NCBI RefSeq assembly: GCF_017302975.1 | Contig: NZ_JAFIMT010000003.1 | Strand: one strand, 5' to 3' | Length of the DNA: 64,000 nt | Origin: Corallococcus exiguus | Lineage (GTDB): Bacteria; Myxococcota; Myxococcia; Myxococcales; Myxococcaceae | Shown: positions 24,895 to 42,258 of the stretch, piece after piece | Layout of the letters: each line of letters begins with the position of its first letter | Numbering within the stretch: the stretch's first letter is position 1 | Program-made: the position numbers and the translations under genes | The notes under the pieces: model-generated | What the model saw: the letters and a program-made list of their open reading frames with translations, nothing else | The model's database searches: none | Told to the model about the DNA's origin: nothing

Positions 24895-26625
24895 CTAGCA
24901 GTCCACCGGGCCTTTCAGGCTGGTAACGGTGGCTTCGATTTCTTCACACCCGCCCAGGGTTTTCGCCCCGTGGGCCGCCAGCTTGATGCCCAGCACGTCC
25001 CCCACCACCACGTCCGCCGTGGAGCGAACCACGACGCCGTCCCGCTGGCGGAACGTCACCGCGTAGCCGCGAGACATCACCTTCAGGGGGCTCAGGGCGT
25101 CCAGGCGGCCCCCCAACCGTCCGAAGTGCGTCTGCGCGGTCGCCAGCATGCCCCGCTGCAGCTCCAGGAGCCGCGAGCGCGTCTGGGCCACCTTCGCCCG
25201 CTCGGCCGCCACCCGCGCCATGGGGGATTGCCGCTCCAGCCCCAGCCGCGCGTCCGCCAGCGCGCCCCGCCGACGGGTGACGCCCGCGCGCGCCGCCTCC
25301 GACAGGCGCATGGCCAGCTTGAGCAGGTGGGCCCGCTGCTCCGACAGCCGCGTCTGGGGCCGCGCCCGCTGCAGCCGCTCCTGCAAGGCGCGCAGCGTCT
25401 CGCGGTGCTCGCGCGCGCGAGGGCGCAGCACGCGCATCATCGCCTCCACCTGTTCGGACAGGTGCAGGCGCTGGTGGTTCACCTCGCGGCGCGGGTCCGG
25501 CAGCCGAGCGCGAAGCTGGCCCTGGCTCTGACGCAGCTCCAGCACCCGCCGCTCCATGGCCCGGCGCAACCGGCCGGACTGCGTGGCCAGCGTCAGCTCC
25601 AGGTCCGCCAGTACCGGCGCCAGCCGCTCCGCCGCCGCGCTGGGCGTGGGCGCGCGCAGGTCCGCGACGAAGTCCGAAATGGTGAAGTCGATTTCGTGGC
25701 CGATGGCGGACACCACCGGCACCGGCGAGGCGAAGATGGCGCGCGCCACCCGCTCCTCGTTGAACGTCCAGAGGTCCTCCACGGAGCCTCCGCCGCGCGT
25801 CACGACGATGACGTCCACGTCGGTGCGCGAAAGCCGCTCGATGGCCCGCGCCACGTCCTCCGCGGCGCCCTCGCCCTGCACGCGCGCGTCCGCCAGCAGC
25901 ACGCCCAGCCGGGGGTTGCGCGAGTGCAGCACGCGCAGGAAGTCCTGGAGCGCCGCGCCGGTGCGGCTGGTGACGACGCCAATCCGCCGGGGAAGGAACG
26001 GCACGGGCCGGGGCGGCCGCACGCGCCGGTCGCCGATGAGCCCCTCCGCGGCCAATCGCTGCTTGAGCTGCTCGAACGCGAGCGCCAGCGCGCCCTCGCC
26101 CACCGGCTCCAGCCGGGACACGATGAGGCTGTAGCGGCCCTGCGGCTCGTACAGGTCCACGCTGCCCTCGGCCACCACCTCCATGCCGTCGCGCAGCGCG
26201 AAGCGGATCCGCCCCGCCATGGACGCCCACACCTTCGCGTCGATGGAGGCGTCCGCGTCCTTGAGCGTGAAGTACCAGTGGCCGCGCGCGTTGGCGCCGC
26301 GGAAGCTGGACACCTCACCGCGCACCATCACGCGCGGGAAGCGCGTCTCCACCGTCTGTTTTATCTGCCGGGTGAGCTCGCCCACCGACAACACCGTGCG
26401 CTCCGGGCGCGGCGGCGGGGTGACGGCGGCGGGGGGCGGTGGGGCGACTTCAGCCACCGGCGCGGACGAATGAGCCGGGGGAGCCGGGGGGGCCGGAGGC
26501 GTCTTGCCTCCGCTGGCGGCCTTCGCGGGCGCGGGACGCAAGGGGGGTAGCAGCGACGTGCCGAACAGGTCGCCCTGCCCCGGCTCGTCGGCCGGGGGCG
26601 GCTCCAGCCCCTTGCGCTTCTTCAT
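24895..26625 (-). CDS. xseA: Exodeoxyribonuclease VII large subunit with an N-terminal Pro/Ala-rich extension
   Basis: It has an OB-fold followed by a catalytic core (GVVTSRTGAALQDFL...VIVVTRGGGSVEDLW), and about 75 aa of PAPPAPP-rich leader. Confidence 0.85.
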   Translation of the reverse strand: MKKRKGLEPPPADEPGQGDLFGTSLLPPLRPAPAKAASGGKTPPAPPAPPAHSSAPVAEVAPPPPAAVTPPPRPERTVLSVGELTRQIKQTVETRFPRVMVRGEVSSFRGANARGHWYFTLKDADASIDAKVWASMAGRIRFALRDGMEVVAEGSVDLYEPQGRYSLIVSRLEPVGEGALALAFEQLKQRLAAEGLIGDRRVRPPRPVPFLPRRIGVVTSRTGAALQDFLRVLHSRNPRLGVLLADARVQGEGAAEDVARAIERLSRTDVDVIVVTRGGGSVEDLWTFNEERVARAIFASPVPVVSAIGHEIDFTISDFVADLRAPTPSAAAERLAPVLADLELTLATQSGRLRRAMERRVLELRQSQGQLRARLPDPRREVNHQRLHLSEQVEAMMRVLRPRAREHRETLRALQERLQRARPQTRLSEQRAHLLKLAMRLSEAARAGVTRRRGALADARLGLERQSPMARVAAERAKVAQTRSRLLELQRGMLATAQTHFGRLGGRLDALSPLKVMSRGYAVTFRQRDGVVVRSTADVVVGDVLGIKLAAHGAKTLGGCEEIEATVTSLKGPVDC

Positions 26626-28370
26626 CGCGACAGCTTCTCGACCCAGCCCTGGGCCTTGCCGTGCAACTCGTCGTCAGGCGGCGTCATCGCGACGACGTCG
26701 CGGAACTTGGGCAGCGCGTCCTCCGGGCTGGAGTCCTTGATGGAGTAGGCCTGCATGTACAGGTCCTTCGCCTTGCCCTTGAGGTCGTTGACGATGTTGG
26801 CGGCGCCCGTGTGGCTGGGGTCGGCCTGGAGGGCGCGGCGGGCGAACTCCATGGCGCGCGACCACTGGCCGGCGGCCTTCGCGCCCGCGGCGCTCTTGTA
26901 ATAGATGTTGCCCGCGCGGGTTCCCGCGTTGCGCGCCATCTTGCTGGTGCGCCCGTCGGTGATTTCCTTGTCCAGCGAGAGCAGGCGGGTGAGGCCCTTG
27001 GCGTCCAGGTCCTCCAGCTTCTTGTAGAGGTTGCCGAACTCCGTCACCTGCGCCATCAGCTGCTTGCACTGGGGCGTCTTGGCCGAGCACGCGTTGAGGA
27101 TGGCCACCGCGCCGGTGATGTCCGCGTCGCGGAAGCGGTCCACCGCGGGCTCCCACGGCTTGGGCGTCGCGGCCACGCGCACGGGGTCCGGACGCGTCAG
27201 GTCCGCGATGACGCGCACGGCGTCGTCGTTGACCAGCTTGCCGTCGCGGTGCTCGGGGAAGGTCGCGAGCACGTCGTCGGTGATGGCCTTGGCCTTCTGC
27301 ACGTTCTCCAGCGAGCGGGTGTCCAGGAGCCCCTTGGCCTCCTTCGTGCGCTTGTCGGCGGCGTCCGTCAGGTTCTTGCGCGCCGTCTTCAGCTGCTCGT
27401 ACTGCTGGGTGTCGCTGGTCACCTTCTCGATGGACGCCTTCGCGCTGGCCAGCTCGCCCTTGTCCAGCGCCGCCTGGGCCGTGCTCAGGTGCTTCTGGTT
27501 GGGAATCTCCCGCTCCGCGGCCTTCAGGTAGTCCGCCACGCCAGGGTAGTCATCCGCCCGCGTGTGGAGCTCCTCCAGCTTCGCCTTGGCCTGCTCCCAC
27601 TGGCCTTCGCGCACCAGGTTCTTGGCCTCCTGGAAGAGCGCGCCCAGCTGCGCACGGTACTCGCGCTGCTCCGCCTCGATGCGGCCCTGCTCCTCCGCCT
27701 GCTGCCGCATGCGCGAGCGCGCGACGCCCAGGCCCGCGAAGAGCAGCACCAGCACGGCGACGCCCGCGAGCTTGATCCGCAGCCGCTTGCGCTGCGCTTC
27801 CGGAGTGAGCTCCGCGGCGGCGGCGGCGCGCGACGTCTGCGGGCGCGCGCGGCCCTCCCGGGCGGGACGCGTGGGCACGGCCGTGGGACCGCGGCCCGCC
27901 GCCGAGGACGGACGGGGCCGGGAGCCGGTGGGGGCCTGCACCTTCGCGGTGCTGTTGGCGGTGTCCTCGTAGCGCAGCTCCGAGTCGCCCAACGTGATGA
28001 CGTCGCCGTTGGCGAGGAGCGTCTCCTCGGAGATGGGCTCGCCGTTGAGGATGGTTCCGTTGCCGGAGCCCATGTCACTGACCATCCAGCCGGAGGACTC
28101 CTTGCGCAGCGTCACGTGCTTGCGGGAGACGGACGTGTCCTGGATGCAGATGGGGTTGTCAGCGGAGCGGCCGACCGTGTACTCGAGCTCGGAGAGCGCG
28201 AACTCCTCGCCCTCCATGGGGCCGGCGACGACGACGAGCTTCGCGGGGCGGGCCGCGGCGGCACCGGCGGTCGACCGGCGGACCGGCGCGCGCGAACCGC
28301 TCCCGGAGGAGGGCGTACCGGACGTAGGCCGTCGGCGGGCGGGGGGAGGTGCGTTCGACATGGAGGTCAC
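26622..28370 (-). CDS. FHA-domain membrane protein with a long coiled-coil/TPR-like periplasmic region (first gene of the Tad-like cluster)
   Basis: An N-terminal FHA domain (EYTVGRSADNPICIQDTSVSRKHVTL...SGNGTILNG) is followed by one TM helix (IKLAGVAVLVLLFAGLGV) and a helical repeat region. Confidence 0.75.
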   Translation of the reverse strand: MTSMSNAPPPARRRPTSGTPSSGSGSRAPVRRSTAGAAAARPAKLVVVAGPMEGEEFALSELEYTVGRSADNPICIQDTSVSRKHVTLRKESSGWMVSDMGSGNGTILNGEPISEETLLANGDVITLGDSELRYEDTANSTAKVQAPTGSRPRPSSAAGRGPTAVPTRPAREGRARPQTSRAAAAAELTPEAQRKRLRIKLAGVAVLVLLFAGLGVARSRMRQQAEEQGRIEAEQREYRAQLGALFQEAKNLVREGQWEQAKAKLEELHTRADDYPGVADYLKAAEREIPNQKHLSTAQAALDKGELASAKASIEKVTSDTQQYEQLKTARKNLTDAADKRTKEAKGLLDTRSLENVQKAKAITDDVLATFPEHRDGKLVNDDAVRVIADLTRPDPVRVAATPKPWEPAVDRFRDADITGAVAILNACSAKTPQCKQLMAQVTEFGNLYKKLEDLDAKGLTRLLSLDKEITDGRTSKMARNAGTRAGNIYYKSAAGAKAAGQWSRAMEFARRALQADPSHTGAANIVNDLKGKAKDLYMQAYSIKDSSPEDALPKFRDVVAMTPPDDELHGKAQGWVEKLSR

Positions 28371-28397: not shown

Positions 28398-31300
28398 CTA
28401 AAGCTCGTGCTCATAGGCTTTTTCCTGCGCGAGATTGTGGCAGCGATGCTCGGCCGTAGGGAAGCGTCTCCGTACGTCTTCCAGGGTCGCGACCGCATCC
28501 CGTCGGCTGCGGAACTGAACCGCCCGCTGGAACTGCATCATCAGTTGGCTGCAGCGGTGGTCCAGCTCCATTGAAATCTGGGCAATCCGCTCCCGGACGT
28601 CCTCGTAGAGCTCCGGCTTGTCGTCCAGCGCTTCCAGGGTGATCCACGCGGCGCGGTATTCCCGCCACGCCTTGAACAGGTTCTCCGCGCCCACATCCTT
28701 GAGTTCGTAGAAGCGGGCCCCCGCCGTCGCGGCCTCCCGGGCGGAGGTGACCAGCTGATCCGGCGGCGCCTCCGGCACCGGGATGATCTCCAGCCGCAGG
28801 TTCCAGATGCGCCACGGGTCGCGGCCGGGCGGGTTGAGGGCGTTGTCGAAGAGGATCTGGTTGTTGGCGTTGCGCCGCAGGAGGCTGGGCGGGAGGATCT
28901 GCTCCAGCTCACGCTCGGCCGTCTGCGCCGTGTCCGGGGGCACCCAGCCCAGGGAGACGCCGTTGAGGGACAGGTTGACCTCGTCCCGGGCGATGCTGCT
29001 GGCCTGGTAGTGCAGCACCGCCACGGCGCGCGTGGGGGACACGAAGCGGAAGTCGAAGAGCTTGTCGTCGGCGTGGACCCAGCGCACGCCGTCGCCCAGG
29101 CCGAAGGAGTCCGTCACCGGCTCCATGCCCAGCGTGAAGGGTTCGCGGCCCGGGAGCCGGATGGCCGTGGGGGCCGCGAGCGCCACGAGCAGCGTCACCA
29201 CGCCCAGCACGGCCACGCCCGCCAGCGACGCGATGGCGATCCGCTTGGGCAGCGACTGGCGCTTCCAGAAGAGGATGAACCGGCCCTGGAGCGACTTGCC
29301 CAGCTGACGCCGCTGGCGGGCCTTGTCGGCGGCGGACGAGGGCTCGACCTTCGCGACGACCGTCACCGGGCCGTTGGGCACGGGCTGGACGAAGGAGTCC
29401 TCCAGGTCGGCCGGCACGGGCTGGGTGGCATCCCCCTCCCCGTCCGCGGAGGGCACGGGGGCCAGTGGGAACTCGCCCGGCAGCGGGCCGGGGTCCAGGG
29501 TCGGGGCAGGCACGGCGCGGTCCCGGCCGACGAACGTCACCGGCTCCGGCGAAGGCGGCGGGACGGGAGGGCTCCAGGCCGGCGGAGGCGCCACGGGGGC
29601 GGGGGCAACCTGGCCCGTGAAGGTCCCCGAGGCCCGGGTCTCCTCGGGGGCCGCGAAGAGGTCATCGTCCTGGCCGACGAAGGTCGAGGGCTCGCTGGAG
29701 TCGGGCGCGGGGACGGGCACGCTCGCGACGCGCACCGGAGGGGCCACGAGCGGACTGACCGGGGTGATGGGCCGGAGGTCGAGAACGGTCCGCTCCTCGG
29801 GCTCCTCCATCATCGGCGGAGGCAGCGCGGGCGAGGCCGCCTGTGGCGGAGCCGACTCTTCCAGGGGCGGCGCTTCCGGGGTCGCCGGAATCGCCATCAG
29901 CGTGCGCTCCTCGGGCTCATCCAGCTCCGGGAACGGCAGCGCGGGGGGCGGCAACGCGGCGGGCTCGAGCGAGTTCACCGTGGAGATCGCCATCAGCGTG
30001 CGCTCCTCGGGCTCGTCCAGTTCCGGGAGGGGCAGCACGGGAGACAGCGCCGCGGCGGGTGCGTCCGCCGTGGGAATCGCCATCAGCGTGCGCTCCTCGG
30101 GTTCATCCGACACCACCGGGGCCAGGTCCACGGGAGGCGGAACGACGGAAGGCCGAGTCGGAGGCGGCGGAGCCATGAGCCCCGGCGGCGACATCAACGG
30201 CAGTCCGGATGAGGAAGCCGCGGCACTCCGGGCCGCGGGAGCAGCGGACGCGCGCGCGGCGCCAAGCCCCAGCGAGGGACGGTTCAGTGCGGGAGCACCG
30301 ATACCGGGCAGACTCGTGACGCCGTTCCGCTTCGCGGGAGCCGCTGGCTCCACGGGAGCTGGGGCCGCGACCCTCTCCGGCGCGGAGGTCACCGCCGGAA
30401 CAGCCCCGGTCAAGGCAGGAGTTCCGGCCGCGGGAAGCTCGAGCGCGGTGATGTGCGCGGGCTCGGGCGCGGACGACCGGCTCGGTCCCGAGGAACCGAC
30501 CGCGGACAGTCCAGGCCCGGAGGCCCGGACGGAGGCGGAAGGTCCCGGAGCCTTGTTCGCGGCCGGAGCGCTCAGCACCGGGGGGCCCCCAGGAGCCTGG
30601 GCTGGCGCACCCGAGCCCGAAGCGGCAGGCCCCAACACCGGGGGCCCCACGGGAGTCCTGGCGGGCGCGGTCGCTCCCGGCGCCGAAGGTCCCGACACAG
30701 GAGGCGCGCCGGGAACCTTGCCCGAAGCAGCCGACGCGGAGGCCCCCAACACAGGCGGACCCGAAGGAGGCCTGGGAGGAGTCACCGCACCCGGAGCGGA
30801 AGCCCCCGGCACAGGAGCTCCCGGTGCAGGCCGGGCCGGCGCAGCGGATGCCGGCGAGGAAGCTCCCACCACTGGAGCTCCCGGTGCAGGCCGAGCCGGC
30901 GTCGCCGCACCCGGCGCGGAAGCTCCCGACACAGGAACTCCCGGTGCAGGCCGAGCCGGCGCAGCGGATGCCGGCGCGGAAGATCCCAGCACGGGAGTTC
31001 CAGGTGCAGGCCGGGCCGGCGCAGCGGATGCCGGCGAGGCAGCTCCCGCCGCTGGAGTTCCAGGTGCAGGCCGGGCCGGCGCAGCGGATGCCGGCGAGGA
31101 AGCCCCCGGCACAGGAGGCCCGGCGGGAGGCTTGGGCGGAGCCGCCGCACCCGGCGCGGATGCGCTGAGCACAGGCCCCGGAGGAGGCCGGACCGGCGCG
31201 GGGGCACTGACCGCCGGCAGATCCGGAGCGGAGGGCCGCTTCGGTGTGGCGGCCGGCACCGGCATCGCAGGGGTCGCCCCACCCTTCGCCGCGGGCACCG

Positions 31301-31706
31301 CCATTCCCGGGCGCGGCGGAGATACTGGCCGGGCCATGGCCGGCATCGACTGCTGGTAGCTCGTGGGCGCCGCTTCGATTTCCGCGAGCGAGGCCTGCCC
31401 CAAGCCCTGCGGCGACACGTTCGCGTGGGGCGGCGCGAGCACCCGCCGGATGGGCCGGGTGACGTCGTCGTCATCCTCCGGCGGCATCCACACGAAGGTG
31501 AACTCCACCGGCCCCACGGTGATGCGGTCGCCGTCGCGCAGCTGCTTCTCGCCAGCCAGCGGCTGGCCGTTCAGCTGCGTGCCGTTCGCGCTGCCAACGT
31601 CCGCCGCGAAGTAGCGCCCATCCCTCGCCGTGATGCGGGCATGACGCCGGGAGACACCGTGGTCATGCAGCACCAGGTCGTTCTCCGAGGTCCGGCCGAT
31701 CTTCAC
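28398..31706 (-). CDS. Giant FHA-domain protein (1102 aa) with a TM helix and an extensive Pro/Ala/Gly/Ser low-complexity region containing 20-aa tandem repeats
   Basis: The FHA core reads GRTSENDLVLHDHGVSRRHARI...GSANGTQLNG. There is a single TM helix (IAIASLAGVAVLGVVTLLVALAA) and a C-terminal globular part. The first canonical start (GTG 31706) truncates FHA strand 1, and the upstream in-frame sequence has no ATG, GTG or TTG. Confidence 0.75.
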   Translation of the reverse strand: MKIGRTSENDLVLHDHGVSRRHARITARDGRYFAADVGSANGTQLNGQPLAGEKQLRDGDRITVGPVEFTFVWMPPEDDDDVTRPIRRVLAPPHANVSPQGLGQASLAEIEAAPTSYQQSMPAMARPVSPPRPGMAVPAAKGGATPAMPVPAATPKRPSAPDLPAVSAPAPVRPPPGPVLSASAPGAAAPPKPPAGPPVPGASSPASAAPARPAPGTPAAGAASPASAAPARPAPGTPVLGSSAPASAAPARPAPGVPVSGASAPGAATPARPAPGAPVVGASSPASAAPARPAPGAPVPGASAPGAVTPPRPPSGPPVLGASASAASGKVPGAPPVSGPSAPGATAPARTPVGPPVLGPAASGSGAPAQAPGGPPVLSAPAANKAPGPSASVRASGPGLSAVGSSGPSRSSAPEPAHITALELPAAGTPALTGAVPAVTSAPERVAAPAPVEPAAPAKRNGVTSLPGIGAPALNRPSLGLGAARASAAPAARSAAASSSGLPLMSPPGLMAPPPPTRPSVVPPPVDLAPVVSDEPEERTLMAIPTADAPAAALSPVLPLPELDEPEERTLMAISTVNSLEPAALPPPALPFPELDEPEERTLMAIPATPEAPPLEESAPPQAASPALPPPMMEEPEERTVLDLRPITPVSPLVAPPVRVASVPVPAPDSSEPSTFVGQDDDLFAAPEETRASGTFTGQVAPAPVAPPPAWSPPVPPPSPEPVTFVGRDRAVPAPTLDPGPLPGEFPLAPVPSADGEGDATQPVPADLEDSFVQPVPNGPVTVVAKVEPSSAADKARQRRQLGKSLQGRFILFWKRQSLPKRIAIASLAGVAVLGVVTLLVALAAPTAIRLPGREPFTLGMEPVTDSFGLGDGVRWVHADDKLFDFRFVSPTRAVAVLHYQASSIARDEVNLSLNGVSLGWVPPDTAQTAERELEQILPPSLLRRNANNQILFDNALNPPGRDPWRIWNLRLEIIPVPEAPPDQLVTSAREAATAGARFYELKDVGAENLFKAWREYRAAWITLEALDDKPELYEDVRERIAQISMELDHRCSQLMMQFQRAVQFRSRRDAVATLEDVRRRFPTAEHRCHNLAQEKAYEHEL
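30780..31180 (-). repeat. About six tandem copies of a 60-bp coding repeat inside the giant FHA gene
   Basis: Near-identical units gcaggccgggccggcgcagcggatgccggcgaggaagctcccaccactggagctcccggt encode a repeated roughly 20-aa PASAAPARPAPG(A/T)PV(x)GASS motif. Confidence 0.6.
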
Positions 31707-31779
31707 TTCGGCCTGCTCGAAGGCGAGCTCCCGTCCGACCTGGAGCCCCTGGGTGATGGTGAGCAGGATGGGCAGAGGA

Positions 31780-32670
31780 CTAGCCCCCGACGTTGCCGAA
31801 CATGAACTGGAACACGATGGGCCCGAAGAGCACCATGAACACCGTCGGGAAGATGCAGGCGATGAGCGGGAAGAGCATCTTCACCGGCGCCTCGCCCGCC
31901 AGCTTCTCCGCGCGCTGCGTGCGGTCGATGCGCATCTGCGTGGACTGGATGCGCAGCACCTTGCCCAGGCTCGTACCCATCTTGTCCGCCTGGATCAGCG
32001 CCGTGACGAACGTCGTCAGCGACGGCAGGTCCACGCGCACGATCATGCTCTTGAGCCCCTCTTCACGCGTCTTGCCCATCTTGAGCTGCTTGAGCACCAG
32101 CTGCAGCTCCTCGCGCAGCGGACCCTGGCGGCCCTTCTCCACCACCTTCGCCAGCGCGCCCGTGAAGTCCATGCCCGCTTCCACCGACAGCGTCAGCAGG
32201 TCCAGGTTGTACGGAAGCGCGCGGCTGATGGCCAGGTGACGGCGCTTCACCTGATCGTTCAACCAGATGAGCGGATAGAACAGGCCCAGCAGCATCACCA
32301 GCAGCGACCAGGCCAGGTTCATGCCCATGCCGTTGACGACGAACAGGCCGGCCAGCAGCGCCAGGAAGGCGCTGATCTCCTGCAGCGCCATGATGTCCTC
32401 GGGCTTGTACTGCGACGGCTCGCCCGCCTTGATCAGCTTGCGGCGCGTCTTGGACTCGTAGCCCGGCCACATGAAGCGCCGGTTCATCGCGCCCAGCTTG
32501 CGGACGGCGACGGAGCCAGCGCCCTTCATGCCGCCCGCGGACTCGTCCCGGACTTCCGTGAGGAAGCGCTCCAGGAGGTTGGAGTACAGGCCGATGCCCA
32601 GGAACGCCACCGCGCCCGCGGTCAGCAGTGCCGAGCCGCCCATCAGCAGAAATGTCAGGACTTCCTGCAC
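31780..32670 (-). CDS. tadC: Tad/Flp pilus assembly inner-membrane platform protein TadC (T2SS-F family)
   Basis: It has the T2SSF domain and TM topology (LALLAGLFVVNGMGM..., LFPLIACIFPTVFMVLFGPIV). It is paired with TadB immediately upstream. Confidence 0.8.
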   Translation of the reverse strand: MQEVLTFLLMGGSALLTAGAVAFLGIGLYSNLLERFLTEVRDESAGGMKGAGSVAVRKLGAMNRRFMWPGYESKTRRKLIKAGEPSQYKPEDIMALQEISAFLALLAGLFVVNGMGMNLAWSLLVMLLGLFYPLIWLNDQVKRRHLAISRALPYNLDLLTLSVEAGMDFTGALAKVVEKGRQGPLREELQLVLKQLKMGKTREEGLKSMIVRVDLPSLTTFVTALIQADKMGTSLGKVLRIQSTQMRIDRTQRAEKLAGEAPVKMLFPLIACIFPTVFMVLFGPIVFQFMFGNVGG

Positions 32671-34979: not shown

Positions 34980-36431
34980 CTACTGCGCGCGCTGGGCTGG
35001 CGCGGCCCTGTCCGTGTCCGCGGAGGGCGTGACCTGACGCAGGCGGCGCTGGGCCAGCTGCGCCGCGCTGGAGCCGGGGGCCTCGGTGATGATCTGCCCG
35101 CAGATGGCGGCGGCCTCCTGGGTCCGTCCCTGGACGGACTCCGACTCGCAGAGCCGTGAGAGCAGGGCCAGCCGCTCGCTGCCGCTGGCTCCAGCCGCGA
35201 GCGCGGCGCGCAGCAGCTGTGCCTCCCGGGCGCGGTCCCCCTGGTTCGCGGCGGCCTGGGCCTGGGCGGACAGGTCGCGCGCAGTCATCGCCTCCTTGGA
35301 GACGGACTTCTCCATGGACGCAGGCTTCGCGGGCTCCGCGCGGGCGGACTCCTGCTTGGGCTTGGCGTTCGAAAGCCCCGGGGGCGTGGACGGAGGCATC
35401 GCACCGCCGATGGAGCCCACGGCGGAGGGGGCCATGGGCGCGGCCTGGACCACAGGCGCGGAGGCCACGGCGGGAGGCGGCGGAGCCGCGCCCGCTGCCA
35501 CCTCGTCGTCCCCATCCGAGATGAGCCCACGGCCATAGGCCGTCTCACCCATCCGCAGGGAATCGCCCTTCGAGCCCGGGGCCTTGTCGCTGAGTTTGCC
35601 CGCGGAACGCCGCGGCGCGGACTCATCCTTCGCGAGGTAGCCGTCGAGGGCCTGCTCTTCCCTCGGAGGCGGCTCCATCAAGGGTGCCCCGGCCGTCGCC
35701 TGTTCGAGCGCGGCGAACTCTTCCTCCGCGTCCCGGACGGCCTTGGACATCTTCTTCTTGGGAGCCTCGGCGTTCGCGCGGCGCTCCAGCAGCCCGCCAC
35801 CACTGCCCGCGTTCATCCAGTCGGACGGACGGGCCGCGGCGGTGCCCTTGCGCTGCGCCTTGGCCTCCATCTGGTTCCGGTTGATCTCCATCTCGCCCGG
35901 CGCGGGCGCGGCCGCCAGTGCGTCCGAGGCACCCTCGGGCACGTCCACTTCCATGGTCGCGCTTGACGGCGCGGGGGCCACGGCGCTCGGGGCGCTCTTT
36001 TCCCGCGTCTGGGATTCCTGCTTCGCCGCCACCATCGCCGGGCTGGGGGCGCGCTGAGACAGGTTCGGCGACAGGTCCAGGTTCTCGCTCACCGTCAACG
36101 TCAGGACGCCGAAGGTGCCCACCGTTGCCAGGCCCACCGCGGGCAGCAGGAAGCGGCGCCAGCGCGAGGGCTTCGGCTCGGGGCCGGCGGCGGCGCGGCG
36201 CGCGGACTGCTGCGCGTACGCGAGCAGCGACTCCAGGCCCGCGTCCGGCGCGGGCTCCGACGACAGCTGCGCCATGGTCGTGCGCACGCCGCGGATGTCC
36301 GCCAGCGCCTTCGTGCAGCGCGCACAGCCCTGGACGTGCTGCTCCAGCACATGGGCCTCCGACGCGGGCAGTTCGCCGTAGGCGAAGTCGAGGAGCCGGT
36401 CCTCGTGCGCGTGGGCATTCTGGGCATTCAT
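34980..36431 (-). CDS. Membrane anti-sigma factor (zinc-finger type) with a Pro/Ala-rich periplasmic region
   Basis: It has an N-terminal HxxxCxxC anti-sigma motif (HVQGCARCTKAL) and one TM helix. Its start overlaps the stop of the upstream ECF sigma gene (ATGA). Confidence 0.7.
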   Translation of the reverse strand: MNAQNAHAHEDRLLDFAYGELPASEAHVLEQHVQGCARCTKALADIRGVRTTMAQLSSEPAPDAGLESLLAYAQQSARRAAAGPEPKPSRWRRFLLPAVGLATVGTFGVLTLTVSENLDLSPNLSQRAPSPAMVAAKQESQTREKSAPSAVAPAPSSATMEVDVPEGASDALAAAPAPGEMEINRNQMEAKAQRKGTAAARPSDWMNAGSGGGLLERRANAEAPKKKMSKAVRDAEEEFAALEQATAGAPLMEPPPREEQALDGYLAKDESAPRRSAGKLSDKAPGSKGDSLRMGETAYGRGLISDGDDEVAAGAAPPPPAVASAPVVQAAPMAPSAVGSIGGAMPPSTPPGLSNAKPKQESARAEPAKPASMEKSVSKEAMTARDLSAQAQAAANQGDRAREAQLLRAALAAGASGSERLALLSRLCESESVQGRTQEAAAICGQIITEAPGSSAAQLAQRRLRQVTPSADTDRAAPAQRAQ

Positions 36432-37075
36432 CCCGCCACCGTCCTTCCATCCTCCGACAGGTCGCCGTCCACGCCCAGCTCACCCAGGCGGCGGCGCAGG
36501 CCCTCCAACGCGTAGCGCATGCGGCTCTTCACCGTGTTCTCGGACACGCCCGTCACCTCGGCGATCTCCTTGAACGGGATGCCGCTGTACTCGCGCAACA
36601 CGAACACCTCGCGCTGCTCCTCCGGCAGGGCGGACAGGGCCCGCTCCAGCAGGGGCCGGAGGCGGGCGTTGTGCGCGCCGCGCTCCGGGCTGGCCCCGGC
36701 ATCCGGCAGCCCCTCGCCCAGCGGACGTCCCTCGTCGCCGTCGGCACCCGCCGAGGGGGCTTCCAGGGACGTCGTCTGGCGGTAGCTCTCTTTGCGCGTG
36801 CTGTCCACGCAGAGGTTCCTCGCGATGGTGTACAGCCAGGTCGTGAACCGGGCCTTGGGCTCGTATTCCCGGGCGCTGCGGACCACCTTGAGCCAGGTCT
36901 CCTGCAGCACGTCCTCCGCCCGCGCCCTATGGCCTACGAAGCGCAGGATGAAGTTGAACACCGGCGCGCGGTGCTTGCGCACCAACGCATCGAACGCACG
37001 CGCGTTTCCCGCCTGGAAGGCGAGCATCAGCTGCTCGTCTGAGGTTTCGGGTGCCAAACTTCCCCCAGTGCCCAT
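36428..37075 (-). CDS. ECF (sigma-70 family) RNA polymerase sigma factor
   Basis: It has region 2 (LQETWLKVVR...FTTWLYTIARN) and region 4 (EQREVFVLREYSGIPFKEIAEVTGVSENTVKSRMRYA). The start is uncertain (37075, 37027 or 37108). Confidence 0.8.
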   Translation of the reverse strand: MGTGGSLAPETSDEQLMLAFQAGNARAFDALVRKHRAPVFNFILRFVGHRARAEDVLQETWLKVVRSAREYEPKARFTTWLYTIARNLCVDSTRKESYRQTTSLEAPSAGADGDEGRPLGEGLPDAGASPERGAHNARLRPLLERALSALPEEQREVFVLREYSGIPFKEIAEVTGVSENTVKSRMRYALEGLRRRLGELGVDGDLSEDGRTVAG

Positions 37076-37139
37076 GAAGCCACGGGTGCCATCCCCTTCA
37101 CCGCCCACGGCCTGTAACGGACAGCCGTGCGCGAAAGGT

Positions 37140-37553
37140 CTATTCCGGCCGTGGCCGCCGGTAAGTGGCGAGAATGACAGGGACCGCCACCCCTGTCACC
37201 AGAAGTGCCTGCGCAAGTAATACCGCCGGCAGCGGGCGCTGCACATGCACGTACAGCGAGCGGCCGAGCCCCACTCCCAACAGGATGCCCGTCAGCGTAC
37301 GTACCGCGTTGGAACCCGAGGCGGGCCGGAAGCGTCCCACCGCCCAGTCCACGAGCGCGGGCAGCGTGAGTCCCAGCACCACCGGCACGTCCCACTCCCA
37401 CTGGAGCGGCGCCTTCAGCGCGAACAGCGCGAGGAACACGCCCGCGAGCACCGGGTACGTACCCAGGCACCGCGCGCACACGCGCACGCCCGCGAGCACG
37501 TACGTGCGGTTGTACTCATCCGGGTGATGATGGCTGAGCCAGAACACCGGCAC
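37140..37553 (-). CDS. DUF2085-family membrane protein
   Basis: It has [10 protein letters not shown]...[10 protein letters not shown] (a Cys-rich DUF2085 signature) followed by TM helices. The start was trimmed to avoid a 170-nt overlap with the upstream ABC ATPase. Confidence 0.55.
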
Positions 37554-38567
37554 CTCCTCCGGACGTGGAAACAGCGGGCCCGTCCTGCACGTCGCGCGAA
37601 TCCCCTTCGGCCAGGAAGCAAGCCGCGGCGTGGCCTCCGCCCAGGGGATACAGCGGCGGTGACTCGCGGCGGCAGCGCTCCATCGCATGCGGGCAGCGCG
37701 GATGGAACGCGCAACCGGTCGGCGGCGACAGGGGCGAAGGCGGCTCTCCCGGCAGCAGCAGCCGCGCGCGGGGACGCTCCGGATCCGGCACCGGCACCGC
37801 GGACAGCAGCGCCTGCGTGTACGGATGGCGAGGCCCGGCGTACAGCGCCCGGGACGGCGCCACCTCCACGATGCGGCCCAGGTACATCACCGCCACGCGC
37901 GTCGACACGTACTCCACAATCTTCAGGTCGTGCGCGATGAAGACGTAGGTGAGCCCGCGCTCGCGCTGCAGGTCCACCAGCAGGTTGACGATCTGCGCCT
38001 GGATGGAGACGTCCAGCGCGCTGATGGGCTCATCCGCCACCACCAGCTCCGGACGCAACGCGATGGCACGTGCAATGCCGATGCGTTGACGCTGGCCGCC
38101 GGAGAACTCGTGCGGGTAGCGCTGGCGCGCCTCGCGGGGCAACCCCATGGCGTCGAGCAGCGCCAGCACCTCGTCGTCGCGCGCCTTGCCCTTCGCGAGG
38201 CCGTGGATGGCGAAGGGCTCCGCGAGGATGTCCCCCACCGTCATGCGCGGGTTGAGCGACGCGTACGGATCCTGGAAGACGAGCTGCATCTGGCGGCGCA
38301 GCGGCCGTAATTCGCGCTGCGACAGGCCGGTCAGCTCGCGCCCCGCCACGCGGATGGAGCCGGAGGTCGGGTCGATGAGCCGCAGCACCGCACGCCCCAG
38401 GGTGCTCTTGCCGCAGCCACTCTCCCCTACCAGGCCCAGCGTCTCCCCACGGGCGACATCGAAGGACACGCCGTCCACCGCGCGCACCGTGCCGCGCGTG
38501 CGCCCCAACAAGCCGCCCTTCACCGGGAAGTGCACCTTCAGGTCGCGCACCTGGACCAGCGGTTCGC

Positions 38568-38571
<4 letters not shown>
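37516..38571 (-). CDS. ABC transporter ATP-binding protein, peptide/nickel (OppF/DppF) type
   Basis: Walker [10 protein letters not shown], signature [14 protein letters not shown] and Walker B LVVADEP are present, with the oligopeptide-type C-terminal extension. The start is at MSEPLVQV. Confidence 0.8.
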
Positions 38572-39595
<1,024 letters not shown>

Positions 39596-39599
<4 letters not shown>

Positions 39600-40609
39600 T
39601 TCTGGGCCAGCTCCTCCAGGAACTCCGCCTCCTGGATGAGCCCCTTGCGGATGAGCAGGCGGATGAGGCTCGCGACCATGCGCGCGGGCTTCACCTTCTC
39701 CGTGTCCAGGCTGGCCTCCTCGCCGCGCGAGATGCGGTCGATGTCGTCCAGCACCGCCAGGTCCTCCTCGGAGAAGTCCGGCTTGGGCGTGAGCGCCACG
39801 GACGGCTTCACGCCCTGCGCGGCGCCACCGAAGAGCACCACCGGCACGCGCGGCTTGCTCGGATCCTCCGGCTCCGCGGGGGGCGGAGGCGGAGGCGGCG
39901 GACGGGCAGCAGCGGGAGGAGGCGGCGGACGCGGGGCCTTGGGGACCTTGGGACGGGGCGTGGAGCCCAGGATGTCCTCCAGCACCTCCGCGCCGTCGGC
40001 GGACGCGTCGCCCTCGTGCGGCGGAGGCGGCGGCAGGTCCCAGTCCAGCGTCGGCGGCGCGGGTGGGCGCGGCGGCGGAGGCGGGCGCGCGGCCGCGGGA
40101 GGGGGCGGCGGCAGGATGTCCGGCGAATCGTCCTCGTCCATGTCCATCGGTTCAGCCTCCACGATGTCCAGGGGCTCGCCCCGGCCGCGCGCGAGCGCCT
40201 GCTCCAAGTCGTCCGGCGCTACGACGAACACCTTGAGCGGTTTGCGCAGCTGGAAGCGCAGCTCGTCCACCAGCATCAGGTTGCCCGGGTCTTCCACCGC
40301 GACGTGGATCTTCTCGCTGCGGCCGTCCTGCTCCGCCGCGAAGAGGAGCACCCGGTGCTCGGTCTGGAAGTCCATGGACACCAGCGAGGACACCGCATGC
40401 GGGATGTACTCGGGGATCTCCACGAACGGCAGCTCGTGCTGCGCCGCGAGTGCCCGCGCGATGTCCCGGCCCGTGCACAGGCCCATGGACACCAGCACCT
40501 CACCCAGCTTGCGGCCCTGGCCGCGCCGTCCGGACGCGAGGGCCTGCTTCACCTGCTCGTCCGTCACCACTCCGGCCTGGACGAGGAGTTCACCAATCTT
40601 CTTGCGCAT
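39596..40609 (-). CDS. Protein with a GspE/T2SSE N-terminal (MshEN-like) domain, a Pro-rich linker and a short conserved C-terminal helix; no ATPase domain
   Basis: The N-terminus [20 protein letters not shown]...[32 protein letters not shown] matches the T2SSE_N fold. The middle is PPPPP-rich. The C-terminus [20 protein letters not shown] is shared with its neighbour. Confidence 0.65.
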
Positions 40610-40618: not shown

Positions 40619-41368
40619 CTACCGCTTGACCTTGGCGAGGTATTCCTCGCGGGAGAAAACGCCCTTCTCGATGAGCAGCTCCACCATGGCCTTCAGCGCC
40701 GCGACCTCCTTGCGCTGGACGTCCTCCACGCTCTTGAGCAGCTCCGCGGGGCTGCCAGAGGCCGCGCGAGGCGGCTCCGGCGGGGGGGCCTGGCGAGGGG
40801 GCGGCGCGGCGGCGGGCTTGGGGGACATGGCGACGGCGGCGGCCGGGTCCAGGTCCTTGAGGTTCTTCACGACGGTGCGGCCCTGCGCGTCCACCACCTT
40901 GAAGTTGGTGTCCGCGTCCTCCAACTCCGCCGTCTCCTCGTAGAGGCGCGCGAACGCCCGCGCCACGGAGGTGCGCCCGGCCACGTTCGCCACGATGCGG
41001 CACTTGGACAGGGCCCGCAGCTCGTCCAGCACCCGGACGTTGAGCGGGTCCGACATGGCGACCACCAGCGTCTTGCCGTCGTCGCGCAGCTGCAGCGGGA
41101 CGACAGAGAAGTCGCGGGCCGTCTGCGCCGGAATCTTGGCCTTCACGTGCGGCGGCACCATCTGCACGGAGTCCAGGTTCACCGCCGGCATGCCCAGCTG
41201 CTTCGACAAGGCGCGCACGAGGATGTCCTCGGAGACGAGGTTCATCCGGACGAGGATCTCGCCCAGCTTCCCGCCCCACTTGGCCTGCTCGGCGAGCGCC
41301 GCCTTGAGCTGGCTCTCCTGCAGGACGTTCGCCTTGATCAGCAGTTCTCCAAGCTTGATCTGTGCCAT
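40619..41368 (-). CDS. Second protein with only a GspE/T2SSE N-terminal (MshEN-like) domain; paralogue of the adjacent gene
   Basis: Its domains read LGELLIKANVLQESQLKAAL...KLGEILVRMNLVSEDILVRALSKQLGMPAVNL and the C-terminus VELLIEKGVFSREEYLAKV. It has no Walker motifs. Confidence 0.65.
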   Translation of the reverse strand: MAQIKLGELLIKANVLQESQLKAALAEQAKWGGKLGEILVRMNLVSEDILVRALSKQLGMPAVNLDSVQMVPPHVKAKIPAQTARDFSVVPLQLRDDGKTLVVAMSDPLNVRVLDELRALSKCRIVANVAGRTSVARAFARLYEETAELEDADTNFKVVDAQGRTVVKNLKDLDPAAAVAMSPKPAAAPPPRQAPPPEPPRAASGSPAELLKSVEDVQRKEVAALKAMVELLIEKGVFSREEYLAKVKR

Positions 41369-41427
41369 GTCGTGCGCGCCATAGTACCCGGTTTGCGCCG
41401 GGACGCTGCCTTTCGACGCCTGGAAGC

Positions 41428-42258
41428 TCAGGAACCCGGCGCGGGGGGCGGCTGGGACACCGGCTCCCCCGAGCGGACCTGCTGGCCCCGCGCGTCGACG
41501 TCCACCACCTTCGCCCCCTGGGGCGCGCCCAGTTCGTAGAGCGTCAGGTCCGGGCGGCCGTTGAGGCGGATGTCCGTGTACTTCAGGTCCAGCTTCGTGT
41601 CCGCCGTGGCGGCGATGAGGTGCACCTTGCCCGGGAAGAACTGGTCGCCCCGCTGCTCGAAGTCCTCGAACGCCAGGTCGTAGCCCGGCACGCCCCGGAC
41701 CTCGCTCTTCACCACGCGCAGGTGCTTGGGATCCACGCGCAGTGTCTGCGTCGCGGGCCCCCGCTGGAGCTTGAGCACGTACACCCGCTCCTTCTCGTCC
41801 AGCTCCAGGGTCATGGACTCCGGCGGCAGCAGGGGGACCTGCCCCAGCATCACCGCCACCAGCTCCTCGCTCGGCAGGACGACAGGCAGGAAGCGGGACA
41901 CGTTCTCCGCGCTCGCCGGGCCCTGGAGGTACGTGTTCTCCCCTGCCTGGTAGACGCCAAAGCGTTCGCCGTCGGAGACGAGCGAGGCCACCGGGCGGTT
42001 GAAGAAGTCGTAGGTCTCCAGGTGGATGAGGGCCGGGCGGGTGATGGAGAGGTACGTGGAGAGCGTTCCGCTGCCCTGGGGCGAGTCCACGTGCAGCTTG
42101 GCGTCACCCTCCAGGTTCACCACCTTCGCCTGCCGCTCGCGCACGTGCTGGTAGAGCGTCTGGGCGTCCTCGATGCGGCCCTCCGGACCGAACTCGAGGC
42201 GTTTGGGGCAGGCCGAACAGAGGAGGACCAGGAAGATTGCGGCGGCTGCGCGGTTCAT
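41428..42258 (-). CDS. Outer-membrane-type lipoprotein (DUF4292/LolB-like fold?)
   Basis: It has a signal peptide with the lipobox LCSAC; this is the first gene of the long minus-strand cluster. Confidence 0.6.
   Translation of the reverse strand: MNRAAAAIFLVLLCSACPKRLEFGPEGRIEDAQTLYQHVRERQAKVVNLEGDAKLHVDSPQGSGTLSTYLSITRPALIHLETYDFFNRPVASLVSDGERFGVYQAGENTYLQGPASAENVSRFLPVVLPSEELVAVMLGQVPLLPPESMTLELDEKERVYVLKLQRGPATQTLRVDPKHLRVVKSEVRGVPGYDLAFEDFEQRGDQFFPGKVHLIAATADTKLDLKYTDIRLNGRPDLTLYELGAPQGAKVVDVDARGQQVRSGEPVSQPPPAPGS

Follow-up and report, generated by a model that had tools for sequence, protein, structure and literature searches.

A Corallococcus gene array that very probably holds the orthologue of kil cluster II beside an Opp-like neighbour

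The minus-strand gene array analysed here, part of a 64-kb stretch of DNA (the window), very probably consists of the Corallococcus orthologue of Myxococcus xanthus kil cluster II and a separately transcribed neighbour. The system itself is already published: in M. xanthus, MXAN_4648-4661 make up the second of the gene clusters for Kil, the pilus with which myxobacteria kill prey (Seef et al. 2021, eLife, PMC8460266; Herrou et al. 2025, Nat Commun, PMC12075869). A sequence-only reading had described 14 co-directional genes and their domains at 26622-42258, and all 14 were recovered on the minus strand by third-codon-position GC (GC3) gene calling and Pfam. Judged by its sequence, the window is Corallococcus chromosome: several Corallococcus genomes encode an identical KilB protein, and in four of them the DNA of the region is about 96.5% identical. 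The region falls into two adjacent blocks, A (42258-37140) and B (37075-26622), which are probably functionally separate. The genes of block B and the promoter-like elements are the following:

37116-37198, minus strand: conserved cis element upstream of the ECF sigma gene, with the palindrome TGACAG-N12-CTGTCA (37198-37175), TTCTCGCCACTTAC and TAGACC-N17-CGTT (37142-37116)
36428-37075, minus strand: ECF sigma factor, 215 aa, MXAN_4662 equivalent (Pfam Sigma70_r2, r4_2)
34980-36431, minus strand: zf-HC2 transmembrane anti-sigma protein, 483 aa, MXAN_4661 orthologue (Pfam zf-HC2, residues 10-39)
34926-34960, minus strand: promoter-like element TGACCGATGC...GATAAT before kilK, ending 6 nt upstream of the kilK ATG
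34659-34919, minus strand: KilK orthologue, a Flp-type adapter prepilin, 86 aa (RRG/QAMVEYS motif and hydrophobic helix)
34517-34546, minus strand: sigma-70-like promoter TTGACA-N18-TAACAT upstream of kilB, the only promoter-like match in 19.5 kb
33608-34426, minus strand: KilB, CpaB/RcpC homologue, 272 aa (Pfam SAF and RcpC)
32684-33529, minus strand: KilG, TadB/CpaG-type platform protein, 281 aa (Pfam T2SSF)
31780-32670, minus strand: KilH, TadC/CpaH-type platform protein, 296 aa (Pfam T2SSF)
28398-31775, minus strand: MXAN_4649-type FHA protein, about 1125 aa from a CTG start (Pfam FHA, Yop-YscD_cpl)
26622-28370, minus strand: MXAN_4648-type protein, 582 aa (Pfam FHA, Yop-YscD_cpl, weak TPR)

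The assignment of block B to Kil cluster II follows from orthology, synteny and the published gene table for MXAN_4648-4661. Comparison with M. xanthus gave one-to-one orthology, with identities of 92% for KilB, 95% for KilG, 82% for KilH, 69-77% for KilK and 85% for the ECF sigma factor, and the gene order is that of M. xanthus DK1622-type loci as well as that of the published table. Both loci contain the genes for the zf-HC2 anti-sigma protein (4661), KilK (4655), KilB (4652), KilG (4651), KilH (4650), the FHA protein (4649) and the FHA-TPR protein (4648). They are flanked downstream by xseAB and upstream by genes for the ECF sigma factor, DUF2085, two ABC, two MshEN and a lipoprotein and by divergent exbBD, and they share promoter-like elements before kilB and after the anti-sigma gene. 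The earlier suggestion of one half of a split Tad-like system resembling the second Kil cluster is thereby confirmed, and Pfam matches for T2SSF, CpaB/SAF and FHA were found among the cluster products. An equation of the 14 genes with MXAN_4648-4661 is not supported: only seven of them correspond, the other seven lie upstream (MXAN_4662-4668 equivalents), and the locus lacks Tip4 and four hypothetical genes. Tip4 (KilM4, KilN4 and KilL4) and MXAN_4653, 4654, 4656 and 4657 are absent from the Corallococcus locus, and KilK therefore comes directly after the anti-sigma gene. No KilL4, KilM4 or KilN4 minor pilin was detected in the window by tblastn with M. xanthus queries (best E = 2.5), nor was any TadE or Tad domain gene.

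The window also carries no Tad ATPase, secretin or prepilin peptidase, as first noticed from the sequence alone. Pfam retrieved no T2SSE ATPase, secretin or A24 peptidase from nearly all GC3-supported genes of the 64-kb window, and a six-frame motif scan of the whole window found neither the T2SSE Walker A motif nor the A24 peptidase motif. The missing motor genes are kil cluster I, about 80-90 genes distant in C. coralloides according to published tables, in which KilA, KilC, KilF and KilD have gene indices 4689-4692 and KilB, KilG and KilH 4609-4611. In M. xanthus the motor genes are likewise encoded elsewhere in the genome, although there cluster I is about 1500 genes away. Features that the Corallococcus locus has in common with canonical Tad/Flp systems (type IVc; Caulobacter cpa, Aggregatibacter tad) are CpaB/RcpC, the paired TadB/TadC platform proteins and a prepilin of Flp type carrying the G/XXXXEY motif. 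However, it has no TadA/CpaF, RcpA/CpaC, TadV/CpaA, TadZ/CpaE, TadD or TadE/F/G; in their place, FHA-transmembrane proteins and an ECF sigma/anti-sigma pair are encoded.

KilK, for which no Pfam match was obtained, shares 77% identity with its M. xanthus counterpart in a 60-residue alignment (E = 1.5e-33), and its C-terminus ...YYDSFYFVLNLPFP is conserved suborder-wide. KilB, encoded directly upstream of kilG, scored 190 bits with TIGR03177 and matched RcpC in the PDB (9gzr, E = 1.6e-9). Four transmembrane segments are predicted in KilG, and the positions of kilG and kilH match MXAN_4651 and MXAN_4650 by tblastn. [quoted passage not shown] According to this model, prey contact causes the platform, KilB and the secretin to assemble at the contact site, a short KilP pilus primed by a Tip trimer via KilK is polymerized with power from KilF, and the prey dies (PMC8460266, PMC12075869). 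The block B products would act together with cluster I (KilA peptidase, KilC secretin, the FHA-fused ATPase KilF and KilD), the major pilin KilP and Tip minor-pilin trimers, all encoded at other places in the genome; a prey-killing function in Corallococcus is proposed here by analogy with M. xanthus.

The giant FHA protein had been listed among accessory genes with no assigned mechanistic role, and both FHA proteins are still uncharacterized in the literature. The MXAN_4649-type protein comprises a cytoplasmic FHA domain, approximately 700 Pro/Ala/Ser-rich repeat residues, one transmembrane segment (residues 819-837) and a periplasmic beta-sandwich and TPR-like domain; an AlphaFold2 model of the last 265 residues had a mean pLDDT of 88 and gave only generic fold matches. 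At about 1100 aa it is far larger than the M. xanthus homologue (484 aa), which aligns full-length except for the repeat insert, and homologues elsewhere are mostly 460-530 aa. About 600 residues of the enlargement are Pro/Ala repeats, and the gene contains tandem repeats of 60 bp and 96 bp. Its start is most likely a conserved CTG at 31775, not the GTG at 31706, whereas the M. xanthus gene starts with GTG; several genome annotations miss the CTG, and the FHA domain is truncated in them. The MXAN_4648-type protein consists of FHA, one transmembrane segment (199-217) and a TPR-like region, and its orthologues are full-length even in the deepest lineages. Both FHA domains retain the phosphothreonine-binding residues GR, SxxH and NG, and for both proteins a topology of cytoplasmic FHA, single membrane span and periplasmic domain can be given. 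They may be phosphothreonine-dependent scaffolds spanning the inner membrane.

The ECF sigma factor scored 266 bits with NCBIfam PRK12513 (cutoff 206), and its gene overlaps by 4 nt that of the anti-sigma protein, whose transmembrane segment spans residues 94-112 and whose periplasmic part is of low complexity. In M. xanthus, the anti-sigma MXAN_4661 is listed within kil cluster II (Seef 2021, PMC8460266). The element upstream of the sigma gene is conserved at the nucleotide level in 21 out of 21 lineages, rare CCT/ATT/ACT codons included, and the window has one occurrence of TAGACC-N17-CGTT, compared with an expected 0.08. In Archangium the element is kept with the sigma gene even though DUF2085 has been separated. 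The second element lies downstream of the anti-sigma gene in Corallococcus, before kilK, and in Myxococcus, Hyalangium and Citreicoccus, before the TadE gene kilM4. The third, before kilB (TTGACA and TAaCAT), is maintained in 25 of 26 lineages regardless of the upstream gene and lies inside the 232-nt kilK-kilB junction. These promoter-like elements are phylogenetic footprints in the sequence rather than mapped transcription starts. The sigma/anti-sigma pair would head a transcription unit from its own conserved promoter, and kilK and kilB would have additional internal promoters.

Such a layout is at odds with the single 14-gene transcription unit proposed earlier, as is the Archangium array, which is broken by an opposite-strand gene and an inversion. 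In order from 42258, the junctions of the 14 genes measure 59, 9, -4, -4, -32, 64, -4, 60, 232, 78, 13, 4 and 27 nt. However, the tight, co-directional array extends past 26622 through xseA (which overlaps the MXAN_4648-type gene by 4 nt), xseB, a response regulator gene, ispA, dxs and tlyA to 20534, and the logic of tight junctions would equally take in xseAB, dxs and tlyA. Close to the array there is also a response regulator gene whose product has an HD_5 (HD-GYP-type) domain. In a DiscOperon preprint, kil cluster II (MXAN_RS22530-RS22635) was recovered as a predicted 20-gene operon; tag mapping showed that this interval begins at the sigma gene and leaves the ABC and MshEN genes outside. 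No terminator was found between blocks A and B, and the gap is only 64 nt, so read-through from block A is possible.

Block A contains these genes:

41428-42258, minus strand: DUF4292/LolB-like probable lipoprotein, 276 aa (Pfam DUF4292, 55 bits)
40619-41368, minus strand: MshEN-only protein 1 (MshEN1), 249 aa (Pfam MshEN; no ATPase domain)
39596-40609, minus strand: MshEN-only protein 2 (MshEN2) with a Pro-rich linker, 337 aa (Pfam MshEN)
38568-39599, minus strand: OppD/DppD-type ABC ATPase, 343 aa (Pfam ABC_tran and oligo_HPY)
37516-38571, minus strand: OppF/DppF-type ABC ATPase, 351 aa (Pfam ABC_tran and oligo_HPY)
37140-37547, minus strand: DUF2085 membrane protein, 135 aa, closing the Opp-like block (Pfam DUF2085)

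This block is most likely a LolB-like lipoprotein gene plus a remnant of an Opp operon, merely adjoining Kil. In 14 deeper lineages, oppA-oppB-oppC lie directly upstream of the same MshEN-MshEN-ABC-ABC-DUF2085 block, and the ABC ATPases are therefore identified as OppD and OppF of a peptide importer. The OppD-type ATPase has intact Walker A, signature and Walker B motifs, and scored 370 and 367 bits with the NCBIfam DppD and OppD models, below their equivalog cutoffs (541 and 575). The OppF-type gene starts at the ATG at 38571, with a 4-nt overlap, as in gene calls from Corallococcus genomes. The DUF2085 gene, which overlaps the ABC gene by 32 nt, came after the second ABC gene in every locus inspected. 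As in Opp/Dpp importers, ABC_tran is combined with oligo_HPY in both ATPases, whose C-termini are Cys-rich, and related lineages encode them behind one SBP_bac_5 protein and two BPD_transp_1 permeases. In contrast to those importers, two MshEN genes separate the ATPase genes from the place of the permeases, and the ATPase genes are followed by one for DUF2085. BPD_transp_1 permeases (two copies) and a family-5 substrate-binding protein are absent from the window; the binding-protein and permease genes would have been lost from the locus, with MshEN and DUF2085 genes embedded in the operon. The lipoprotein has an N-terminal signal sequence with LLCSAC and scored 44.3 bits with NCBIfam LolB1_Flavo, just below the cutoff of 50. 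Its gene, orthologous to the M. xanthus 278-aa gene adjoining divergent exbBD, is probably a neighbour of Kil rather than a part of it.

MshEN domains carry a tandem RLGxx(L/V/I)(L/V/I)xxG(L/V/I)(L/V/I)xxxxLxxxLxxQ motif. MshEN1 contains two tandem 24-residue motifs, KLGELLIKANVLQESQLKAALAEQ and KLGEILVRMNLVSEDILVRALSKQ, exceeds the cutoff of the NCBIfam c-di-GMP_motif profile (64.8 bits versus 38), and can be aligned, over residues 4-160, to the N-terminal domains that PilB, PilF and MshE show in PDB structures; from its sequence, it looks like a c-di-GMP receptor. Nevertheless, the first motif residue is Lys, not Arg, in both motifs of MshEN1 and MshEN2, and the motif Gly, retained in MshEN2, is Asn in both MshEN1 motifs. 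With these substitutions of the key Arg and Gly in MshEN1, c-di-GMP binding is uncertain. With MshE, PilB and PilF the Corallococcus proteins share a complete N-terminal domain, the two tandem motifs and a score above the profile cutoff, but they stand alone, with no ATPase domain and with a Pro-rich linker and a short C-terminal helix. Tandem repeats with units of 18-20 bp lie within the MshEN2 gene, at 40052-40112.

The two blocks are syntenic in all loci of Myxococcus, Corallococcus and Archangium with sufficient flank, as well as in the deeper oppABC-bearing lineages. Considering this synteny, the two may be functionally linked. Block A could be separately transcribed and yet regulate Kil: the ECF sigma/anti-sigma pair would be an envelope-signal switch for the Kil platform, into which MshEN-OppD-OppF-DUF2085 would feed c-di-GMP status (MshEN) or prey-peptide status (OppD/OppF, DUF2085), thus tuning Kil. 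This is a rather unlikely arrangement. The adjacency of MshEN-MshEN-OppD-OppF-DUF2085-sigma-anti-sigma-kilB persists across otherwise rearranged lineages, the proteins are well conserved (about 77-85% between genera), and the HD_5 response regulator is nearby. However, synteny within one suborder is weak evidence, xseAB being equally syntenic. No motif was found that block A shares with the kil promoters, the Arg and Gly of the MshEN1 motif are altered, and in one clade Tip genes, KilK and KilB occur with neither the block A genes nor the sigma pair within about 9-10 kb upstream.

That clade also bears on the view, held in the sequence-only reading, that the lipoprotein, MshEN, ABC and DUF2085 genes are accessories of the apparatus. 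In its fullest form, all 14 genes would be one Tad-like apparatus operon in which these products are non-canonical partners replacing the ATPase, secretin and peptidase, which we consider very improbable. All the genes run in one direction and their junctions are short or overlap, synteny is kept in most related genera, and MshEN domains normally occur on type IV pilus ATPases. On the other hand, the published tables place the canonical partners elsewhere in Corallococcus genomes, the ATPases, being OppD/OppF, have their cognate oppABC beside them in 14 lineages, and the lipoprotein is LolB-like. A conserved promoter/operator precedes the sigma gene, where an opposite-strand gene is inserted in Archangium, housekeeping xseAB, dxs and tlyA are equally tightly linked, and no literature link of MXAN_4662-4667 to Kil was found. 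That the locus belongs to an ordinary adhesive Tad/Flp pilus, or is a decaying remnant, is hardly credible despite its generic Tad domains (T2SSF, CpaB/RcpC, Flp motif) and the loss of Tip4 genes, given one-to-one orthology and synteny with the experimentally characterized kil cluster II, the Kil-specific FHA and zf-HC2 genes, proteins 82-95% conserved with intact reading frames, and the five Tip-like trimers that published models of C. coralloides place elsewhere in the genome.

The main value of assigning block B to Kil cluster II is correct filing: the locus belongs under the Kil predation pilus of Corallococcus, as its platform half, and not among motor-less or non-canonical Tad machines. 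A useful by-product for those working on Kil is the Corallococcus form of the cluster, which retains the adapter pilin KilK without the Tip4 genes. The three conserved promoter/operator footprints suggest how cluster II subdivides and offer concrete sites for mutation. The evidence for an Opp remnant argues against effort on the upstream ABC ATPases as Kil parts, unless genetics indicates otherwise. If the regulatory coupling were nevertheless true, stand-alone MshEN proteins within an opp operon would represent a novel type of ABC ATPase regulator, and the sigma switch together with block A would link feeding to killing.

The window has a G+C content of about 70%, so raw open reading frame (ORF) lists were crowded with spurious frames, and the gene set was defined as ORFs filtered by codon-position GC (GC3 ≥0.82). 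Between 42258 and 26622, this set contains 14 successive minus-strand genes. Every domain named in an earlier sequence-only reading was recovered among them with Pfam, and the gene calls, domains and junction lengths together confirm the array that it had described. In array order, the genes and their matches are:

42258-37140, minus strand: block A, comprising a lipoprotein gene (DUF4292), two MshEN genes (MshEN1 and MshEN2), two ABC ATPase genes (each ABC_tran and oligo_HPY) and a DUF2085 gene
37075-26622, minus strand: block B, comprising an ECF sigma gene, a zf-HC2 anti-sigma gene, kilK (86 aa, without a match), kilB (SAF and RcpC), kilG and kilH (each T2SSF), a large FHA gene (MXAN_4649-type) and a gene with FHA and a weak TPR match (MXAN_4648-type)

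The successive junctions measure 59, 9, -4, -4, -32, 64, -4, 60, 232, 78, 13, 4 and 27 nt. The kilK–kilB junction spans 232 nt, and the array does not end at 26622. The tight co-directional run goes past this position, with xseA overlapping the last array gene by 4 nt, and continues down to 20534 with xseB, a response regulator, a polyprenyl synthase, dxs and a TlyA/FtsJ methyltransferase. A 535-aa ORF at 18917-20524 (plus strand; GC3 of 0.95, unusually low GC1 of 0.58, no Pfam match) is the sole plus-strand gene breaking the long minus-strand run at 9-42 kb. The Rfam scan of the window retrieved two tRNA-Gly genes and nothing else; these are tandem tRNA-Gly(GCC) genes with identical scores (2702-2776 and 2807-2881, minus strand).

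Window proteins were placed by tblastn on 80 related loci, which belong to close relatives within the suborder. Several Corallococcus assemblies encode a KilB-like protein identical to that of the window, and a 20-kb region shares ~96.5% DNA identity with four of them. Identity to the Myxococcus xanthus locus is 92% for KilB, 95% for KilG, 82% for KilH, about 70% for KilK and 82% for xseA, in the same order. In M. xanthus, kil cluster II comprises MXAN_4648 (FHA and TPR), MXAN_4649 (FHA), MXAN_4650 (KilH), MXAN_4651 (KilG), MXAN_4652 (KilB), MXAN_4655 (KilK), MXAN_4658 (KilL), MXAN_4659 (TadG-like), MXAN_4660 (KilM) and MXAN_4661 (zinc finger), with MXAN_4653, 4654, 4656 and 4657 listed as unknown (cluster II table, Seef 2021 supplementary file, PMC8460266). 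A second M. xanthus locus shows the upstream part as well: divergent exbD and exbB, a 278-aa lipoprotein gene, two MshEN genes, two ABC genes, DUF2085, ECF sigma, zf-HC2, TadE, Tad (TadG-like) and TadE. These identities and the shared order identify the window, at the sequence level, as the Corallococcus orthologue of kil cluster II plus its conserved upstream neighbours (equivalents of MXAN_4662-4668), and the resemblance to the second Kil cluster that the sequence-only reading had pointed out proved correct. Genetics and imaging in M. xanthus have shown that contact-dependent prey killing requires KilB, KilG and KilH and that the Kil machine assembles where prey is contacted (PMC8460266). 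The major pilin is KilP (mxan_5121), with KilK serving as adapter for Tips 1, 2 and 4 (PMC12075869). Some metagenome-assembled genomes (MAGs) additionally carry a second KilB-like (CpaB) gene, 74-80% identical (loci L060, L076, L079, L081 and L082), at loci that lack kilG, kilH and FHA genes; both kinds of locus occur together in at least two MAGs (L044 with L060, and L049 with L082).

Synteny with MXAN_4648-4661 is partial. KilK, KilB, KilG, KilH, both FHA genes and the zinc finger are present, but the minor pilins of Tip4 (KilL4, KilM4 and KilN4) and MXAN_4653, 4654, 4656 and 4657 are absent. Eight genes separate the anti-sigma gene from kilB in M. xanthus (TadE of 329 aa, TadG-like of 694 aa, TadE of 397 aa, two unknowns, KilK of 75 aa and two further unknowns), whereas in the window and all Corallococcus loci kilK stands there alone. 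Searches with the M. xanthus proteins (tblastn) found no remnants of Tip4 or of the four unknowns anywhere in the window; the single MXAN_4654 match arises from the conserved 3' end of kilK read in another frame. The small ORF itself encodes a true Flp prepilin, with the motif RRG|QAMVEYS and a hydrophobic helix behind it, and the KilK C-terminus is nearly invariant throughout the suborder. At this spot, Myxococcus, Pyxidicoccus, Hyalangium and Citreicoccus carry a pilin region of 6-7 kb in direct orientation; in Archangium and Cystobacter its orientation is reversed, and the A. gephyra copy shows a TadE gene. Since these genera keep the region, secondary loss is the most parsimonious explanation for Corallococcus; the compact form without it also occurs in several deeper lineages. 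The compact Corallococcus form is not new information: five Tip-like trimers have been modelled for C. coralloides, none of them near kilB (Herrou 2025, PMC12075869), and a 2026 preprint describes kilK and Tip4 dropping out as genome divergence grows.

The 14 genes had been taken for a single transcription unit, a claim that is not supported, given conserved elements before the sigma gene, kilK and kilB and an insertion and an inversion in Archangium. A consensus scan of 19.5 kb retrieved one sigma-70-like site, TTGACA-N18-TAACAT (34546-34517), in the 232-nt gap before kilB. In the aligned 260 nt upstream of kilB, TTGACA and TA(A/C/G)CAT are kept in 25/26 lineages, with flanks that cannot be aligned and an upstream gene that varies by lineage. 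A second conserved element, TCCAnnTGACCGATGC...GATAATGG, lies right after the anti-sigma stop codon and ends 6 nt 5' of the first subsequent ATG. In Corallococcus this ATG is that of kilK; in Myxococcus, Hyalangium and Citreicoccus it is that of kilM4, a TadE gene. The position of the element supports the start of the 86-aa kilK. The third was found in 21/21 lineages, ahead of the ECF sigma gene, with a perfect palindrome (TGACAG-N12-CTGTCA) as its first part, TTCTCGCCACTTAC next and TAGACC-N17-CGTT last:

37116-37198, minus strand: sigma-gene element, conserved at the nucleotide level (14162-14243 in related locus L087, 15833-15913 in L088 of A. gephyra)

It is spelled in rare CCT, ATT and ACT codons of the DUF2085 3' end and looks like a promoter combined with the operator of some regulator. 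In A. gephyra (L088, 14351-20753), DUF2085 is separated from the ECF sigma gene by an opposite-strand WD40 gene and a 79-aa ORF, the element remains with the sigma gene, and an inversion affects the KilK/Tip block that follows the anti-sigma gene. We read all three elements as predicted promoters known from their sequence footprints; together with the Archangium rearrangements, they argue against a single obligatory 14-gene transcript and favour a boundary that separates DUF2085 from the sigma gene. The DiscOperon preprint, in which kil cluster II is the largest predicted M. xanthus operon (MXAN_RS22530-RS22635, 20 genes), supports this boundary independently: by locus-tag mapping, this range begins at the sigma gene, excludes the ABC and MshEN genes and extends into housekeeping genes downstream of the FHA genes. 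In a predation transcriptome, MXAN_4658-4660 were induced and kilB, kilG and kilH were not listed as induced, which is compatible with an internal promoter. On this reading, the sigma gene would head a single long unit, within which further promoters would serve kilK (or the Tip genes) and kilB. Terminator scans gave no more matches than shuffled expectation. A direct link from the sigma factor to the kil promoters is not supported by its motif, since TAGAYC-N15-19-CGTT is present at the sigma gene only and absent from the kilK and kilB upstream regions.

Block A had been read as apparatus accessories, a role for the ABC ATPases and MshEN proteins that the comparison with deeper lineages does not support. 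In 14 deeper Myxococcaceae loci (L065-L073, L075, L080, L083, L085 and L086; opp region about 1-3000), SBP_bac_5 and two BPD_transp_1 genes (oppA, oppB and oppC) lie directly upstream of the series MshEN-MshEN-ABC-ABC-DUF2085-sigma-anti-sigma-kilB, co-directional with it and with tiny gaps. Because oppABC precede the same series there, we assign the two 'orphan' ATPases, on synteny, as OppD and OppF of a peptide importer. Corallococcus, Myxococcus and Archangium lack the binding-protein and permease genes here and have the DUF4292 gene and divergent exbBD in their place. Both ATPases are probably functional, since they retain intact Walker A, signature and Walker B motifs and are ~80% identical between genera; they perhaps serve permeases encoded elsewhere. 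The oppABCDF operon of the deeper Myxococcaceae is unusual in having two MshEN-only genes placed between oppC and oppD, with DUF2085 at the end, and is ordinary in other respects. This arrangement hints that stand-alone MshEN proteins may act on ABC ATPases. Residues 4-160 of MshEN1 align with the c-di-GMP-binding N-domains of PilB, PilF and MshE, and the protein scores above the NCBIfam c-di-GMP_motif cutoff; Lys replaces the motif Arg and Asn the motif Gly, which makes c-di-GMP binding uncertain. Possible local c-di-GMP links are an HD_5 (HD-GYP-type) response regulator gene (48056-49177, plus strand), ~7 kb or less from the MshEN genes and syntenic in M. xanthus and Archangium, and a GAF histidine kinase gene with a receiver domain and a weak GGDEF match (16005-18518, minus strand), ~21 kb away. 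In L006 (JABELA010000158.1, a 22.8-kb contig), a 26-nt CCG-rich overlap at 4526-4551 links two Pro-rich stretches, the 3' end of the bactofilin gene bacP and the middle of MshEN2; compared with window positions 11899 and 39901, the contig is most likely misassembled there, at repeats of proline codons, rather than truly rearranged.

The DUF4292 protein (41428-42258) scored 44.3 bits against NCBIfam LolB1_Flavo (cutoff of 50), whose founder is a Flavobacterium outer-membrane lipoprotein insertase (PMC11885536). It may be a LolB-like outer-membrane lipoprotein insertase of Myxococcota, and a housekeeping role seems at least as likely as a pilotin role. Its gene is divergent from exbB-exbD (42301-43503), 42 nt apart. 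In one clade (L049 and L062), Tip genes, KilK and KilB are present, a GH31 glycosidase or M16 peptidase gene lies upstream of them, and the block A genes and sigma pair are absent within ~9-10 kb upstream. MXAN_4662-4667 are not mentioned in the literature searched. Block A is therefore treated here as a conserved neighbour and not as part of the apparatus, in a comparison that covers Myxococcaceae/Archangiaceae, the 80 best-matching loci being close relatives. The 2025 Kil paper likewise makes no mention of sigma, ABC or MshEN (Herrou 2025, PMC12075869).

The large FHA gene has its first canonical start at 31706; the match to the M. xanthus protein already begins 23 codons before it, at window position 31775. 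The 23 extra residues (LPILLTITQGLQVGRELAFEQAE) form the first strands of the FHA domain and are in frame and kept in all lineages with the gene; several genome annotations use the shorter start, which would remove these strands. The aligned start codon is GTG in M. xanthus and CTG in the other lineages examined (Corallococcus, Citreicoccus, Pyxidicoccus, Myxococcus eversor, Hyalangium and Archangium):

31773-31775, minus strand: CTG start placed by alignment, at the same site in related loci L001-L018, L022, L027, L048 and L051

No canonical start lies upstream of 31775 in that frame in the window. Given the conserved N-terminal residues and the aligned CTG/GTG codon, the gene most likely begins at this CTG, 4 nt past the kilH stop codon, a position that fits translational coupling of kilH and the FHA gene.

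Both FHA domains keep the canonical GR, SxxH and NG phosphothreonine-binding residues, and each domain is followed by the one transmembrane segment of its protein. In the 582-aa MXAN_4648-type protein, the part that is periplasmic by predicted topology is helical and TPR-like, and this protein has full-length orthologues down to the deepest lineages. The MXAN_4649-type is absent from these: in L064-L086 (about 12600-17000), the FHA-TPR gene stands alone after kilH, unlike in L045/L049 and the crown genera. By this distribution, the MXAN_4649-type gene, with its beta-sandwich C-terminus, is a later addition. It returned 104 homologues, all named ones from Myxococcaceae or Archangiaceae, mostly of 460-530 aa elsewhere versus 1026-1102 aa as annotated in Corallococcus; the size gap is a Pro/Ala/Ser-rich linker with a 60-bp repeat (5.4 copies) and a 96-bp repeat (2.4 copies). 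AlphaFold2 confidently modelled its last 265 residues (65 sequences) as a beta-sandwich followed by a helical repeat, with a mean pLDDT of 88 and a pTM of 0.80. A topology of cytoplasmic FHA, disordered linker, membrane span and periplasmic interaction domain is supported. We infer that the FHA proteins would be scaffolds coupling phosphorylation signals to the envelope-spanning machine, in agreement with proposals of the Kil authors (PMC8460266) and a 2025 review.

As claimed before, the window lacks a Tad ATPase, secretin and prepilin peptidase: neither Pfam searches of nearly all other GC3-supported window genes nor a six-frame motif scan of the window detected a T2SSE-type ATPase, secretin or A24 peptidase. 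These components belong to kil cluster I, and the picture of a machine lacking its motor is not supported. [quoted passage not shown] The Kil system is already described and its Corallococcus orthologues already tabulated, and those parts of the sequence-only reading that would have been novel (the single unit, the ABC/MshEN accessories and the motor-less machine) are all unsupported. The C. coralloides clusters are ~80-90 genes apart, which places cluster I outside a 64-kb window, versus ~1500 in M. xanthus (Herrou 2025, Supplementary Data 1, PMC12075869); the split between the kil clusters is much narrower in Corallococcus than in M. xanthus.
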